Positions 8,791 to 13,545 of a stretch of DNA of 64,000 bases are shown one piece after another (the stretch's first letter is position 1; each line of letters starts with the position of its first letter). Under the pieces are notes generated by a model. It saw nothing but the letters and a program-made list of their open reading frames with translations. It did not search any database and was not told the origin of the DNA. The translations under genes were made by a program, and so were the position numbers. Source of the DNA: a bacterium CG10_46_32 (lineage in GTDB: Bacteria > Patescibacteriota > Patescibacteriia > UBA2169); the NCBI GenBank assembly GCA_001889965.1, contig MOEI01000012.1, positions 1,170 through 65,169 of the forward strand, read 5' to 3'.

Positions 8791-8931
8791 AGGTATATGA
8801 TTATTTAAATTGCACGAGGGAAAACGGTGTCAGGAATCATTTTTTTCGGGAATATGCTCCCCTGTGGGGGAGTATCATATAGTTTGTTTAATATTATTTT
8901 GAGCATACCAAAAAAGCCTCAAAATAGCGAG

Positions 8932-8963
8932 TTTCAATGGCTCAACCCCCTGAGCCGTTGAAT
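8932..8963. repeat. islet-boundary hairpin, left copy (degenerate)
   Basis: tttcaatggctca-accccc-tgagccgttgaat, with two stem mismatches relative to the right copy. Confidence 0.6.
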
Positions 8964-9080
8964 TACTTTAATCGATACTTCACAAACCTCCCCCTCTTCC
9001 TCAAGCTCACTAAGATATCTTGTTGCAGTTGCATCAAAAACTTTAATCAGTTTTTCTATGTTATTGTTTGCGGCTGGCAT
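8934..9080 (-). pseudogene. winged-helix DNA-binding domain fragment (48 codons)
   Basis: MPAANNNIEKLIKVFDATATRYLSELEEEGEVCEVS. This is paralogous to the fragment at 10410-10670, and the two share an identical 20-mer at 8974-8993 and 10504-10523. Confidence 0.35.
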
Positions 9081-9087
9081 ATTGTTT

Positions 9088-9446
9088 TTATTTTAACAAA
9101 TCAAAATGTTTCCGTAAATATTCTTTAATCTTATCTAAAGTAAAAGTGTCTATAATACCAATCCTATTAACCAGCCTAGAATAATCAAATGATATAATAT
9201 CATAAACTTTTACTACTGAATCATACATAAGCCTGTTTTGAGATGTTTTTTTTATAACAATATCATCTGCTAGCTTACTATTTAAATTACTTGTCAAAGG
9301 CAACACAGTAATCAAGTTGGATTTTTTAATGTGTATATTTGATTGAACAACTAAAGCAGGGCGGACACCTTGAAACTCAGCCCAACTGATGGATCAAATT
9401 TTACTAGCCAAATCTCTCCATTTTGCACACTCTTCCCTGTATTCAT
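9088..9446 (-). pseudogene. mazF: mazF/pemK-family toxin gene interrupted by a -1 frameshift
   Basis: The N-terminus MNTGKSVQNGEIWLVKFDPSVG is in one frame. The remainder (AEFQGVRPALVVQSN...ITVLPLTSN...) is in another. The two frames meet at a G3 run (plus-strand ccc at 9381-9383), and one extra G would restore the ORF. Confidence 0.7.
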
Positions 9447-10189
9447 AAGTTCTTGTAATACTCATATTCTTCTTTTGATTGAGGGCCTAAATCTTTTAGA
9501 ATATCGCGGCTACTTGCCTCGCGCATGGAGGAAAGTTCATCTGGCTGTTTCATAACGCGCATTACTGTCCCATTTATCAGATACCTATCAAAATCATCTT
9601 CGTGTATATATATTGGCGGATAATTTTGGCTTGATTCTGAATACAAAATAATTTGATGGTTTTCTTCATCTTTAAAAATCTTTTTGATGTTAGCAAGCCC
9701 ATCAATAATAGATAACACGTATTCATTGTTGTTTGGATGTATTTTACTTTTATCAATAATAACGTAATCTCCATCATCTATAGTATTTCCTTGGATATCT
9801 GCTCTGTTCATTGATTGCCCAAACGCGCGTAAAACAAATAAATTATTTGCTTGTTTTGAGGATATATTGCCGAGTAGCTTAGAAGATACTTTTAAATATC
9901 CTTCTTTTTGCTCGTCCGCAAAAATAACTGCTTCTCCACAGTTTGCGCTACCTAATATTGGTATTGATAGTAAGTTTGTTCCTGCTACTTTTCCTGATTT
10001 TATTTTCTCTATTTTTTTACTATTTTTATCAAACCGAATAAGCCCTCGTTTTGCTAGCTGGTTAAGATGGTGCTTTATCTTCTGTGGACTATCTAGCTCC
10101 CCTATCTTTTTACCTATTTCACGCAATGTTAAACCAGAGATGTCTTTTTTTTCTAATAACTTTATCAATTTTTCTTGTATTATATGCAT
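9443..10189 (-). CDS. LexA-like repressor (wHTH + S24 peptidase) with about 36-aa C-terminal extension
   Basis: N-terminal wHTH (LTLREIGKKIG...HLNQLAKRGLI), a cleavage-site region GSANCGEA, the Ser motif FGQSM and the Lys motif ANIKK. Its TGA overlaps the mazF ATG (ATGA). Confidence 0.8.
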   Translation of the reverse strand: MHIIQEKLIKLLEKKDISGLTLREIGKKIGELDSPQKIKHHLNQLAKRGLIRFDKNSKKIEKIKSGKVAGTNLLSIPILGSANCGEAVIFADEQKEGYLKVSSKLLGNISSKQANNLFVLRAFGQSMNRADIQGNTIDDGDYVIIDKSKIHPNNNEYVLSIIDGLANIKKIFKDEENHQIILYSESSQNYPPIYIHEDDFDRYLINGTVMRVMKQPDELSSMREASSRDILKDLGPQSKEEYEYYKNL

Positions 10190-10409
10190 ACATGCATTAT
10201 ATCACAGATATAATATTTTGTTAACAAGTTTTACACAGCGTAATTCTTGACAAGAGTACACTATTCTATAAAAAAAGCCCTTCGCCAAAAACTGACGAAG
10301 GGATGAACAGCAATAGTTCAGTACTTTCTACTGCTGATTATAAGAAAACCAATTACCTCCTCTCTATGGAGAATCGGCACAATACTGCTTGACCACGCAC
10401 CTTCCAGAG

Positions 10410-10670
10410 TCATAGTATCGTAAGCTCTTTTTTCAGCTTTGCGGTATAAATAGCTGGACCAGACATTTCTGTCTCCTTTTGCTTAAGGTGAATTACCGCA
10501 GTTGATACTTCACAAACCTCCCCTTCTCCCCCAATCTGCTCTATCTTGCCTTCTTGTTCCAATTCATCTAAATACCTTGTAGCACTCGCGTCCGAAACAT
10601 TGAGTAGATTTTCTATGTCGTTGTTTGTGGCCTCGGTATTTTCTTTGAGATATACATGGTTGGCATATTT
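10410..10670 (-). pseudogene. start-less winged-helix domain fragment
   Basis: Stop-to-stop frame encoding ..NTEATNNDIENLLNVSDASATRYLDELEQEGKIEQIGGEGEVCEVS.. with no start codon before the homologous part. Confidence 0.4.
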
Positions 10671-10678
10671 TTATGTTA

Positions 10679-11179
10679 TTAATCTTTTAAATACATCTTT
10701 TCCGAGAGCTCTTTTATATAATCCGCACGCATTACTTCCGATTTCCATGTTTCGGGTATACCATTGTACCCATAGTAACACCCGGATAATGCTCCGGCAA
10801 CTGCCGCAAACGTATCTGTATCCCCGCCCAATGTAATAACTTTTTTTATGCTGTCATAAAAAGTATCAGTAATCATTAAAGACCACAACGCGATCCGTAA
10901 TATATCAATGCAATACCCGGACACCGGAATACTATCCTTATTCAGCTTACTGTAATCTTCCACTAACACTCCCGCAACCTGTTCCGGCATATCTGAATAT
11001 ATACTAGACTTGTGGCCCGTGTTTAAGATGATAGCTAAGAGTTCCGCGTTGCGCAAAACATCCGGCCCCTCGCGCATGAGCCGCTCGCGCGGCCAGTCTT
11101 CCGTGGTCGGCTTGGATATGTCGTACCCTTTTTGTTGTGTTCCCTCCATATATGTTAATCGTACCTGCTGCATCAACAA
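10679..11179 (-). CDS. chimeric ORF: RadC-like N-terminal segment joined to the C-terminal half of an ADP-ribosylglycohydrolase
   Basis: WPRERLMREGPDVLRNAELLAIILNTG is RadC N-terminus-like. SGYCIDILRIALWSL...LGGDTDTFAAVAGALSGCYYGYNGIP is the ARH C-terminal half. The true start is uncertain (TTG 11179, ATG 11173 or ATG 11149). Confidence 0.55.
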   Translation of the reverse strand: MLMQQVRLTYMEGTQQKGYDISKPTTEDWPRERLMREGPDVLRNAELLAIILNTGHKSSIYSDMPEQVAGVLVEDYSKLNKDSIPVSGYCIDILRIALWSLMITDTFYDSIKKVITLGGDTDTFAAVAGALSGCYYGYNGIPETWKSEVMRADYIKELSEKMYLKD

Positions 11180-11213
11180 ATTTCAATGGCTCAACCGCCT
11201 GAGCCATTGAAAT
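11180..11213. repeat. islet-boundary hairpin, right copy (perfect 14-bp stem)
   Basis: atttcaatggctca-accgcc-tgagccattgaaat. Confidence 0.6.
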
Positions 11214-11297: not shown

Positions 11298-11501
11298 TTA
11301 CGCTTTGCTTACTTTTACTGCGTTAGGACCTTTTGCGCCATCCTCAACTTCAAATGTCACGGAATCGCCCTCATGAAGTGAAGCGAAGTCAACATCTACC
11401 AGTTCGTTTGCATGAAAGAAAAGATCTTTTGCTTCTCCATCACGCTTGATGAAACCGAAATTTTTATCGGATACCAACTTAGTGATTATGCCTGTTTGCA
11501 T
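11298..11501 (-). CDS. cold-shock domain protein (CspA family)
   Basis: MQTGIITKLVSDKNFGFIKRDG...LFFHANEL contains the RNP1/RNP2-like motifs. The start is set at the internal ATG. Confidence 0.9.
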   Translation of the reverse strand: MQTGIITKLVSDKNFGFIKRDGEAKDLFFHANELVDVDFASLHEGDSVTFEVEDGAKGPNAVKVSKA

Positions 11502-11655
11502 GTGATTAGTGTTTAATTGAATAATGTTGCAGTTGCTATGCAACCGCTCTCAAAATCTTTCCAAGATTATCTCGACTAAGAAGTCTAAAAAAATATTTGA
11601 TACAGAGAGAATATTACATTAAGGTATTTTTGTCAATAGAAAAAGAAAATTCCTA

Positions 11656-12906
11656 TTAACTCCCCCCCACCTCCCTAAAAACCAAATCCATCTCCCCCAC
11701 CTCCGGATCTACCATAAAAGCTCTACGCGAGAATCCAGTCAAATTCAAAGTAGCGAGCGAACGCACACGAGAAAGCGCAACATATCCCATGCCATGGCCA
11801 AAGGTATTACCCAAATTAATCTCTGCAGTGTCTAATGTCATGCCCTGCGATTTATGAATGGTAATTGCCCAGGCTAACCTAAGAGGCACTTGGAATATAG
11901 AGGCAATAACAGAACTATCATGTTCCAAAGACCAGCTAGAAAACCCAACACTAATTCGCCTGCCGCTTTTTAATCTAACAACAGGGAGCAGTACACCTGC
12001 ATCATCATAAAAATCTACCACAACTCCCATGGTGCCGTTTACATAGCCATGTTCAAAATTATTTTTAGTAAACATCACCACAGCGCCAATCTTTAGCACT
12101 AACTCCTGTGGAATTTTGTTATACTCTTTTTTAAGTTGCAGAACCGCATCCCGCTTACCTTTGGAACGCATAGGATACACCTCTGCGTCTTGTTCTAGCT
12201 TTTCTAGCTCAAGCTCATTTACTGCATCTGCATCTTTGTTACGCGAAAATAATTTGGTTGTGTAGTTCTCTCCAGAAACAGGTTGCTTAAATCGCGATTG
12301 CAAAATCTCTTCTGTTTCGTAAGATGTTTTGCTCTGACGAATATCATTGAGTACTTGAGAGAATAAATCATCAGTATGCCTAAACTGCTCATCTAAATAA
12401 CAAACCCGCAGTTTTGCTTTGTTCCAGGATTCAGAGTGATACGCCAAAATCGGTTTTGTTTTATCGGTGCGAACCGGTGGCAGCTGAAAAAAATCACCGC
12501 ACAGAACAACTTGCAAACCACCAAAAGGTTGCGCGCTCCGCTTGACTGCTTTACATACCTCATCAACCAACTCTAAGGTACGCGCATCAACCATAGAAAT
12601 CTCATCAATAATCAAAACAGCGCATGCCAAAAACCTAGCTTGCATATGTTTGTTATCAGCAAGCTTTTGCAAATCACGGCCAGAGAGCTCCTCTTTTATA
12701 CCAATACCAGCCCACGAATGGAGGGTGGTGCCATCAATATGTGTTGCAGCAATACCCGTAGAGGCAGTTACTGCGTGCTTTTTGTTATTCTTTTTAAGGT
12801 ATTCAATAAACTCACGCAAAATATATGTCTTACCACTGCCGGCTGGGCCAGTGAGAAAAACATTGTTGCCTGATTTGAGTATGTTGAGCGCTTTTTTTTG
12901 GTCCAT
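11656..12906 (-). CDS. PIF1/RecD-like superfamily-1 DNA helicase
   Basis: Walker A LTGPAGSGKTY, IIDEISMV, GDFFQLPPV and C-terminal AITIHKSQGMT. Confidence 0.8.
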   Translation of the reverse strand: MDQKKALNILKSGNNVFLTGPAGSGKTYILREFIEYLKKNNKKHAVTASTGIAATHIDGTTLHSWAGIGIKEELSGRDLQKLADNKHMQARFLACAVLIIDEISMVDARTLELVDEVCKAVKRSAQPFGGLQVVLCGDFFQLPPVRTDKTKPILAYHSESWNKAKLRVCYLDEQFRHTDDLFSQVLNDIRQSKTSYETEEILQSRFKQPVSGENYTTKLFSRNKDADAVNELELEKLEQDAEVYPMRSKGKRDAVLQLKKEYNKIPQELVLKIGAVVMFTKNNFEHGYVNGTMGVVVDFYDDAGVLLPVVRLKSGRRISVGFSSWSLEHDSSVIASIFQVPLRLAWAITIHKSQGMTLDTAEINLGNTFGHGMGYVALSRVRSLATLNLTGFSRRAFMVDPEVGEMDLVFREVGGS

Positions 12907-12980
12907 GTGTATGTACGGTACGTTACTTACATTAAAAGAGCAATACAAAAAAACAACAGGCTACTTGAGTGAACCGTTGC

Positions 12981-13232
12981 CTAATACACTCCCTGCCGAT
13001 GCCCAAACTCAATCACCACAACCAATAGCTCGTTCTTATAAATCTTGTATACAATCCGGTATGGCCATACCCGAAAAGAATATTGCCCCTCGCGTTTTCC
13101 GTGAAGTTTTTTGCCCAAAAAAGGATTGGCTTCAATCTCGCCAAGAATTTGCAATACACGCATCTGGTACTGCTTTGGCAGTTTATGTATGTTTTTTTGC
13201 GCCCTTGGTTCTACGCGCAGTTTGAACACCAT
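12981..13232 (-). CDS. RelE/ParE-family type II toxin
   Basis: 83 aa: ...YSFRVWPYRIVYKIYKNELLVVVIEFGHRQGVY. Confidence 0.8.
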   Translation of the reverse strand: MVFKLRVEPRAQKNIHKLPKQYQMRVLQILGEIEANPFLGKKLHGKREGQYSFRVWPYRIVYKIYKNELLVVVIEFGHRQGVY

Positions 13233-13545
13233 ATTTTTTTGCAGATTTATCGGCTACAACAAAACCAAAATCTTTTTTAAGATCATCAAGCGTTGCCCAT
13301 TTTTTATACTCACCGCTTTTAACAGCCTTGTCAGTTTCGGCAACATGTTTATCTAAGTCTGGAAAATCTCGCAGCACCTCCAATGTTTCCGCCCAAGACT
13401 CAAATTCTTCGGCGGACATTAACACCGCCTTAGGACGGCCGTTTTCCGTGAGTGTGTAGTACCTACCCGGTTTTTGCACGTCACGAGTGATGGTAAAAAT
13501 ATCTTTACGCGCCTGGGTTGTAGAGATAGTATGTTGAGTATTCAT
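13183..13545 (-). CDS. Phd/YefM-family antitoxin with extended basic C-terminus
   Basis: ISTTQARKDIFTITRDVQKPGRYYTLTENGRPKAVLMSAEEFESWAETLEVL. It overlaps the toxin ORF by 50 nt. Confidence 0.8.
   Translation of the reverse strand: MNTQHTISTTQARKDIFTITRDVQKPGRYYTLTENGRPKAVLMSAEEFESWAETLEVLRDFPDLDKHVAETDKAVKSGEYKKWATLDDLKKDFGFVVADKSAKKYGVQTARRTKGAKKHT

Follow-up and report, generated by a model that had tools for sequence, protein, structure and literature searches.

A 64,000-nucleotide stretch of the metagenome-assembled genome of bacterium CG10_46_32 (contig MOEI01000012.1; the whole stretch is called the window below) carries on its reverse strand a gene for a 248-aa LexA-like protein followed by a damaged mazF gene. 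Comparison with related loci makes it probable that this locus is a type II toxin-antitoxin (TA) operon of the Patescibacteria (candidate phyla radiation, CPR), in which a LexA-type repressor is the antitoxin. The C-terminal tail of the LexA-like protein is, with comparable likelihood, a portable MazF-neutralising element, which would make the protein itself the antitoxin. A preliminary description of this DNA had already read the acidic/aromatic-tailed repressor as doubling as the antitoxin, and that reading gains support from the distribution of the tail within the LexA-like family and from its presence on other protein scaffolds. The components of the unit are:

9443-10189, reverse strand: LexA-like repressor and putative antitoxin gene, 248 aa, with a winged helix-turn-helix (wHTH), a predicted cleavage site, an S24 autopeptidase/dimerisation domain and a C-terminal tail
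9446-9547, reverse strand: C-terminal tail Q215-L248 (QPDELSSMREASSRDILKDLGPQSKEEYEYYKNL), the proposed MazF-neutralising element, on the evidence of conservation, substitution rates, structure prediction, other scaffolds and co-variation
9443-9446, reverse strand: ATGA, the mazF start codon overlapping the lexA-like stop codon (translational coupling)
9088-9446, reverse strand: mazF/pemK pseudogene, 119 aa once repaired, with a PemK_toxin match after repair and 73-76 % identity to the intact MazF of the related loci L001 and L002

The comparison drew on 99 loci from GTDB genomes and JGI metagenomes, together with two from the window's own population and two reached through MazF look-ups, all sorted by the presence of the tail (…YY.NL) on the LexA-like protein and by the downstream gene. 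MazF or a remnant of it lies directly downstream in all 28 non-redundant loci whose LexA-like protein bears the tail, whereas no MazF was found near any of the 71 relatives that lack the tail (205-230 aa, N-terminus likewise MHIIQEKL…). A Fisher test of tail against MazF gives p=4e-24, a value that overstates the independence of the loci because the tail-bearing set is nearly one clade. Intact LexA-like/MazF pairs, which were sought in other genomes, proved to be the rule: MazF is intact (109-119 aa) in 21 of the 28 tail-bearing loci, runs off the contig end in two and is damaged in five. The ATGA overlap had been noted in the window at 9443-9446, exactly where it is found, and the same 4-nt overlap recurs in 17 of the 21 loci with an intact MazF. 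The five damaged copies are as follows:

Window: 1-nt deletion
L027: gene almost wholly deleted, with '…KIHFDL*' left
L030: last ~45 aa left
L031: first 28 aa left, whereas MazF is intact in its sister locus L038, which shares the genomic context
L043: start codon changed from ATG to ATA

In 5 of the 28 loci the toxin has thus decayed and the putative antitoxin has been retained, and it is typical of TA systems that the toxin is the first to decay while the antitoxin stays. The genes that flank the tail-bearing loci are unrelated save between close sister loci. When the flanking open reading frames (ORFs, minimum length 45 aa) that lie up to 1.5 kb from 26 tail-bearing loci were clustered, nothing was shared beyond such sisters, neither a third conserved gene nor a hidden MazE, for which the loci offer neither space nor an ORF. 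The window protein itself has no Pfam match to MazE, AbrB or ribbon-helix-helix families, and no MazE-like ORF is present at its locus; the earlier statement that a separate MazE gene is missing is thereby borne out both at the locus and by the clustering. As for carriage by phages, the matches in IMG/VR were to tail-less relatives only (37-45 % identity). Judged by gene content and order, the pair is a self-contained and conserved two-gene unit with the predicted antitoxin first and the toxin second.

The tail is net-acidic and aromatic, about 34 aa long, and follows the motif …D.LK.LGP.SKEE.DYY.NL. It is predicted by AlphaFold2 to form two helices (residues 220-234 and 239-246, with predicted local distance difference test (pLDDT) values of 76-80), and its ratio of nonsynonymous to synonymous substitution rates (dN/dS) of 0.05-0.08 points to strong purifying selection. 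The full-length protein with the tail occurs in at least 120 homologue clusters at 90 % identity. The tail is also found outside the LexA-like family. One MazF, 51 % identical to that of the window, is preceded with a 4-nt overlap by a 285-aa protein with HTH_3 and SocA_Panacea domains instead of a LexA-like protein, and the C-terminus of this protein, …FIQTGASDVHDSLRPLSKEEFDYYIRL, is the same tail. A 34-aa profile of the tail gave 138 matches at E<=1e-3 among 1.84e9 representative proteins, including HTH_3-Panacea proteins (P0245, P0304, P0308, P0313, P0316 and P0320), a RelB-family protein (P0210), a protein with HTH_3 alone (P0277) and many proteins of 40-100 aa that have no Pfam match; in nearly all of them the tail is C-terminal. 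Downstream sequence could be read at eight non-LexA loci, and in six of them the tail-bearing gene is directly followed by a gene for PemK/MazF:

L106-109: Panacea protein
L114: RelB-family protein
L133/134: HTH_3 protein
L136: P0215
L118: P0324
L122/123: P0212

Five of these six MazF genes are intact and one (L122/123) is frameshifted; stop and start codons overlap, and the proteins are 46-65 % identical to the LexA-linked MazFs. Over 25 pairs, tail identity and MazF identity are correlated (Spearman 0.50, Mantel p=0.0005). A single LexA-linked locus (L047) supplies both the closest tail and the closest MazF to those of the Panacea-linked pair, and another one (L110) does so for the RelB-linked pair. 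Since the two identities correlate and the nearest partners share a locus, tail and toxin travel and evolve as a pair, and it is the N-terminal scaffold that is replaced. Such a pattern across scaffolds is the one to be expected of a toxin-binding module.

The matches to the tail profile included no full-length LexA-like representative of 245-256 aa and only C-terminal fragments of such proteins (P0187, P0190, P0197, P0199, P0201 and P0293), probably an effect of clustering at 50 % with tail-less or partial representatives. Many of the matches of 40-60 aa contain little besides the tail and could be either gene-call fragments or minimal antitoxins. At L122/L123 (1501-2090) a 79-aa tail-bearing protein precedes the frameshifted MazF; this locus comes from the same Crystal Geyser-type metagenome (JGI 3300004208) as L021, a JGI assembly that carries the window's locus, and toxin decay is a recurrent event in the community from which both come.

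Several observations weigh against an antitoxin role of the LexA-like protein. In a neighbour-joining tree of the core domain, 25 of 26 tail-bearing sequences group together, and the association of tail and MazF inside the LexA-like family could reflect shared descent; it appears to be largely one ancient event that was then faithfully maintained. Two tail-bearing small proteins (P0223 and P0196) have no adjoining MazF. The tail profile, compared with the PDB at E<=10, retrieved no solved antitoxin and gave chance matches only (a cytochrome b5-like protein and an integrase). Cleavage at the predicted site between Cys84 and Gly85 would cut off the wHTH and leave the tail on the S24 domain, and need not free MazF by itself. 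Finally, the toxin is dead in the window, which leaves the module unable to act as a TA system in this organism.

The 248-aa protein is 100 % identical to BK004_01880 of 'bacterium CG10_46_32', a CPR/Patescibacteria genome. It matches Peptidase_S24 (PF00717; 58.4 bits, cutoff 23.3) and LexA_DNA_bind (PF01726; 25.0 bits, cutoff 23.7) in Pfam, and scores 74.7 bits against the NCBIfam lexA equivalog (TIGR00498), below the cut-off of 110.95. In a pairwise HMMER alignment with E. coli LexA, Cys84-Gly85 falls on the scissile bond Ala84-Gly85, Ser126 of a GQSM motif on Ser119 and Lys169 on Lys156. All four residues are invariant among 58 homologues, and we take the Cys-Gly pair to be a cleavage site of the UmuD type. 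The corresponding codons are:

9935-9940, reverse strand: Cys84-Gly85, the predicted autocleavage bond within GSANCGEA, from the LexA alignment and invariance
9812-9814, reverse strand: Ser126 of the GQSM motif, predicted catalytic, aligned to LexA Ser119 and invariant
9683-9685, reverse strand: Lys169, predicted catalytic, aligned to LexA Lys156 and invariant

An AlphaFold2 model built from the 58 homologues has a mean pLDDT of 84.9, and its best Foldseek matches are full-length LexA and LexA-DNA complexes (E=3e-11). The gene evolves with a dN/dS of 0.10 against L001. By every sequence and fold criterion tested the protein is a member of the S24/LexA-like family, yet not a lexA equivalog. The preliminary description of a 248-aa LexA-like protein with a wHTH, a cleavage region and Ser and Lys motifs accordingly agrees with the Pfam matches and the LexA alignment. 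The extra tail was also rightly recognised, its length having been put slightly too high at about 36 aa: about 5 residues of LexA remain after the point, residue 214, at which the alignment breaks off, so that some 30-34 C-terminal residues are an addition.

The tail-less relatives (L004-L014, L097 and L099; L045-L049, L054-L055, L060-L064, L067 and L075-L077) adjoin other genes and form several classes. A class of 205 aa lies directly upstream of DNA methyltransferase or restriction-modification (R-M) genes and may represent self-cleaving R-M controllers comparable to C proteins. A second class, of 208-211 aa, adjoins mscL and is likely the housekeeping LexA of the CPR; other tail-less relatives stand beside still other genes. 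Further C-terminal extensions are seen on the same scaffold (L053, L057, L059, L066, L071, L080, L081, L085, L089 and L101; L086 and L098). One is a basic tail, 'KKPKTAWSKFKKFVYRD…' (total length ~229 aa), with no obvious conserved partner. L086 and L098 have a half-degenerate version of the MazF-type tail, 'DFPDSSANEVLKYSKP…', and the gene that follows is DinD/BRO-N-like as judged by eye, not MazF.

In the window, mazF is split into two ORFs in different frames, 9351-9446 (31 aa) and 9088-9315, both on the reverse strand. Restoring a single base yields a 119-aa protein that matches PemK_toxin (PF02452) end to end (E=7e-23), with Arg29 and Thr52 still in place. Among proteins of solved structure, M. 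tuberculosis MazF9 and B. subtilis EndoA are closest to it. The lesion was located in an alignment (A1) of the window with three intact relatives and with two more assemblies of its own population. Where the intact relatives read GGG CAT/CAC GAG (Gly-His-Glu), the window reads GGGC-TGAG.

9379-9380, reverse strand: place where one nucleotide, the A of a conserved His codon, is missing (GGGC^TGAG), from alignment with intact relatives

The lost base adjoins a G3 run (9381-9383) and lies outside any homopolymer. Two other assemblies, an ENA re-assembly (L020) and one from JGI (L021), show exactly this deletion, and the locus is carried by 8 contigs. The repaired gene has a dN/dS of 0.24-0.25 against L001 and L002, compared with 0.20 between those two intact copies, and these values argue for a recent inactivation. 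On these comparisons the lesion is both real and recent. The earlier description had correctly noticed a -1 frameshift and had placed it at the G3 run; the lost base is in the adjoining His codon, between 9380 and 9379. Of the three explanations that it offered, a slippage-prone site finds no support in a base that stands outside a homopolymer, a sequencing error is at odds with the same lesion in other assemblies, and real decay is favoured, as four further loci have independent toxin-inactivating lesions. Real decay is the straightforward reading because the base is not part of a homopolymer, because the lesion recurs across assemblies and because those four loci have independently suffered toxin damage. 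From the sequence comparisons, then, the window copy is a recently decayed TA module, in which the orphan gene of the presumed repressor/antitoxin is intact and still under selection.

Three other explanations of the locus deserve consideration. The LexA-like protein might be a damage-responsive repressor and nothing else, with a MazF that is either not neutralised or neutralised in some other manner, and with a tail that serves as a degron, in oligomerisation or as a pseudo-substrate of the S24 domain. In favour of this, the HTH and an upstream TGTCAA box are common to the tail-less paralogues beside R-M genes, mscL and others, and regulation is for this reason clearly an ancestral role. What makes a purely regulatory function improbable is that, within the LexA-like family, the tail is present solely where MazF follows, and that the same tail is attached to Panacea, RelB and XRE scaffolds ahead of the same MazF subfamily and co-varies with MazF. 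Moreover, a MazF without any antitoxin would be lethal upon derepression.

The two remaining explanations concern the window copy. If the disruption of mazF were an artefact of assembly or sequencing, or a site of programmed frameshifting, the toxin would be functional in the organism; the otherwise intact frame and a dN/dS only slightly above that of intact copies would fit. This is very unlikely in view of the agreement between the ENA and JGI assemblies and the number of contigs with the locus, the position of the lost base, the absence of a frameshift at the same point in any relative, and the independent lesions in L027, L030, L031, L043 and L122, which indicate that decay of MazF is common. 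It is scarcely credible that the protein is simply the housekeeping LexA of the SOS response with a decayed toxin gene as a chance neighbour. It does possess the full LexA architecture, and its top structural and sequence matches are LexA; its score nevertheless stays well under the equivalog cut-off (74.7 against 110.95 bits), the LexA-like/MazF pair travels jointly through unrelated genomic contexts, and the tail-less class of 208-211 aa beside mscL is a better candidate for that role.

Candidate control elements lie upstream of the gene:

10196-10224, reverse strand: sigma-70-type promoter TTAACA-17 nt-TG-n-TATAAT with an extended -10 (11/12 matches), the best promoter-like site in 8800-10700
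10247-10253, reverse strand: TTGTCAA box (self-palindromic, TTG-T-CAA), candidate operator ~25 nt upstream of the promoter, proposed from its family-wide occurrence
10278-10302, reverse strand: terminator-like hairpin of the upstream gene (11-bp stem, then a T-run), which delimits the unit on its 5' side

The -10 box ends 6 nt before the lexA-like ATG, no Shine-Dalgarno sequence is found in positions 10189-10201 of the reverse strand, and the lexA-like mRNA is probably leaderless, as judged from this layout. The close relatives L001 and L002 share the promoter geometry, and more distant relatives have leaders of at least 30 nt. A palindromic operator had been sought upstream of 10189, and TTGTCAA at 10247-10253 is the candidate. 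In 75 of 96 family loci (22 of 26 with the tail, 53 of 70 without), the 130 nt that precede the start codon contain TGTCAA, as against 4.1 % of background windows of 130 nt. The complement of this hexamer, TTGACA, often coincides with the -35 box. TTGTCAA is therewith a plausible operator of the family, at the level of a candidate. Across the whole window the box is not over-represented (8 found, 13 expected); an SOS-like regulon in the window was rejected on this ground and by the lack of a second LexA-like gene there. A divergent promoter as the source of the upstream TTGTCAA was rejected by inspection only: the other strand showed no -10 box at a consistent spacing, and the orientation of the upstream genes is not constant.

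A model of how such an operon might work can be proposed by analogy. The S24 domain would dimerise the LexA-like protein, as it does in LexA, so that each dimer displays two tails, which would each fit into the groove where a MazF dimer binds RNA, giving a MazF2-A2-MazF2 complex in a MazE-like arrangement. The wHTH would meanwhile autorepress the probably leaderless transcript by binding to TTGWCAA boxes, both at the -35 box and upstream of it. Self-cleavage at C84-G85, RecA*-stimulated or spontaneous, might then detach the DNA-binding domain and derepress the operon. Because this cleavage would leave the tail on the dimeric S24 fragment, the release of MazF would need a further step, for example degradation of the fragment; the suggestion in the preliminary description that autocleavage sets MazF free has to be amended in this respect. 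E. coli LexA fragments are substrates of Lon and ClpXP, and the S24-tail fragment might be degraded in the same way, freeing MazF and coupling DNA damage or phage attack to RNA cleavage. In its most complete form, this scheme makes the antitoxin a self-destructing sensor, in which RecA*, arising from DNA damage or phage replication, would trigger S24 self-cleavage and derepression, destabilise the S24-tail fragment and liberate MazF, with the tail as a plug-in peptide moved between at least four scaffold types; we consider it possible, if rather doubtful. Were it true, a defined activation signal would be part of the type II TA system itself, and Lon/Clp targeting of the intact antitoxin would be unnecessary.

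The proposed system resembles MazEF, PemIK and EndoAI-EndoA in being bicistronic and translationally coupled with the antitoxin gene first, in its PemK/MazF-fold endoribonuclease toxin, in a tendency of the toxin to decay first and, as proposed here, in joining a DNA-binding, dimerising part to a C-terminal acidic/aromatic toxin-binding segment. It differs from them in having a wHTH and an S24 autopeptidase instead of the AbrB/SpoVT or ribbon-helix-helix domain of MazE, and in a tail without detectable similarity to the solved tails of MazE, PemI and EndoAI. With LexA, UmuD and lambda CI it shares the wHTH, the flexible linker with its cleavage bond (Cys-Gly as in UmuD), the S24 Ser-Lys domain and the LexA fold recovered by the model. 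Unlike these, it has the extra two-helix tail of ~34 aa and a sub-equivalog score, and it is encoded with a toxin as a mobile two-gene unit and not as the regulator of a repair regulon. TA loci regulated by LexA are themselves well known (tisB/istR, symER, dinJ-yafQ, yafNO and Caulobacter higBA). They likewise tie toxin expression to DNA damage via LexA cleavage, as proposed here; in those systems, however, LexA acts in trans and the antitoxin is separate, whereas here the operon-encoded LexA-like protein itself appears to be the antitoxin.

The modular character of the tail has a precedent in PanA, where Phd-C, a neutralising C-terminal element of two helices, is portable between antitoxin scaffolds that are otherwise unrelated (Ernits 2023, PMC10440598). 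In both cases a large non-neutralising scaffold is followed by two C-terminal helices that are predicted to neutralise the toxin, and the element is found on unrelated scaffolds (Kurata 2022, PMC8832971; PMC10440598); the HTH_3-Panacea proteins found here even carry the tail of the LexA-like protein and precede the same MazF subfamily. The scaffold in the window is nonetheless an S24 autopeptidase repressor, the element appears to be specific for MazF and not for Doc, and the SocA_Panacea domain (DUF4065) is absent from the window protein in Pfam while present in other tail carriers. Antitoxins with a protease domain (ImmA/RmrA) have also been published (PMC10440598). RosmerTA (in which RmrA combines an HTH with an ImmA metalloprotease), CapH/CapP and ImmR/ImmA resemble the present pair in uniting a protease domain with an HTH in an antitoxin or regulator, and proteolysis of the repressor has been proposed as the trigger by which DNA damage or phage attack leads to the effector (PMC10440598, PMC2701414). 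In these systems an ImmA/IrrE zinc metalloprotease acts on an HTH partner, whereas the S24 Ser-Lys domain would cut its own chain. Makarova et al. (2009) likened COG2856-Xre to LexA by analogy only (PMC2701414). A Campylobacter paper based on TAfinder lists an 'S24-LexA-like' antitoxin for HipA, which that paper calls a prediction only (PMC7826846). No description of an S24/LexA-type MazF antitoxin was found in the full-text literature, the coverage of which is incomplete, so that this absence is not proof. What would be new relative to the known type II TA systems is an S24/LexA-like antitoxin with a MazF-specific tail.

The physiological activation of type II toxins is a long-standing and contested question, to which a LexA-type autoprotease antitoxin offers a concrete trigger in RecA*-induced self-cleavage; SOS signal and toxin would be joined within one polypeptide. 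The occurrence of the same ~34-aa tail on LexA-like, Panacea, RelB and XRE scaffolds would likewise show, in a clean natural case, how antitoxins evolve by modules, and the tail peptide could be put to use in engineering the control of MazF. The distribution also indicates that the many Patescibacteria genes annotated as 'S24 family peptidase' or 'hypothetical' include a sizeable class of antitoxins.

The window module sits in a region with other gene remnants. After mazF, a 48-aa ORF (8934-9080, reverse strand) is the C-terminal remnant of a gene for a transmembrane and winged-helix protein, which is intact after mazF in L002 (2109-2414, 101 aa) and in L001; another related fragment, 'EGKIEQIGGEGEVCEVS', precedes the unit (10410-10562, reverse strand). 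Direct repeats bracket the lexA-like/mazF unit, one of 49 nt and 82 % identity (8959-9007 and 10489-10537) and another of 25 nt (9072-9096 and 10658-10682). A palindrome lies close by:

8933-8962, no strand assigned: palindromic hairpin on the downstream side of the unit, past the 48-aa remnant, with a second copy at 11182-11211

This 30-nt palindrome, TTCAATGGCTCAACC(C/G)CCTGAGCC(G/A)TTGAA, is found at these two places and nowhere else in the window. Repeats and palindrome together may be the trace of an insertion or recombination event that moved the module. Further upstream, a 166-aa ORF (10679-11179, reverse strand) matches the RadC N-terminal domain (UPF0758_N) with residues 25-68 and the C-terminal end of an ADP-ribosylglycohydrolase with residues 61-143, and probably arose when remnants of two genes were fused. 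Another TA pair, 3 kb away (12981-13545, reverse strand), consists of a Phd/YefM-type antitoxin (13183-13545) and a ParE/RelE-type toxin (12981-13232), and is followed by genes for a PIF1-family helicase (11656-12948) and a cold-shock protein (11298-11543).

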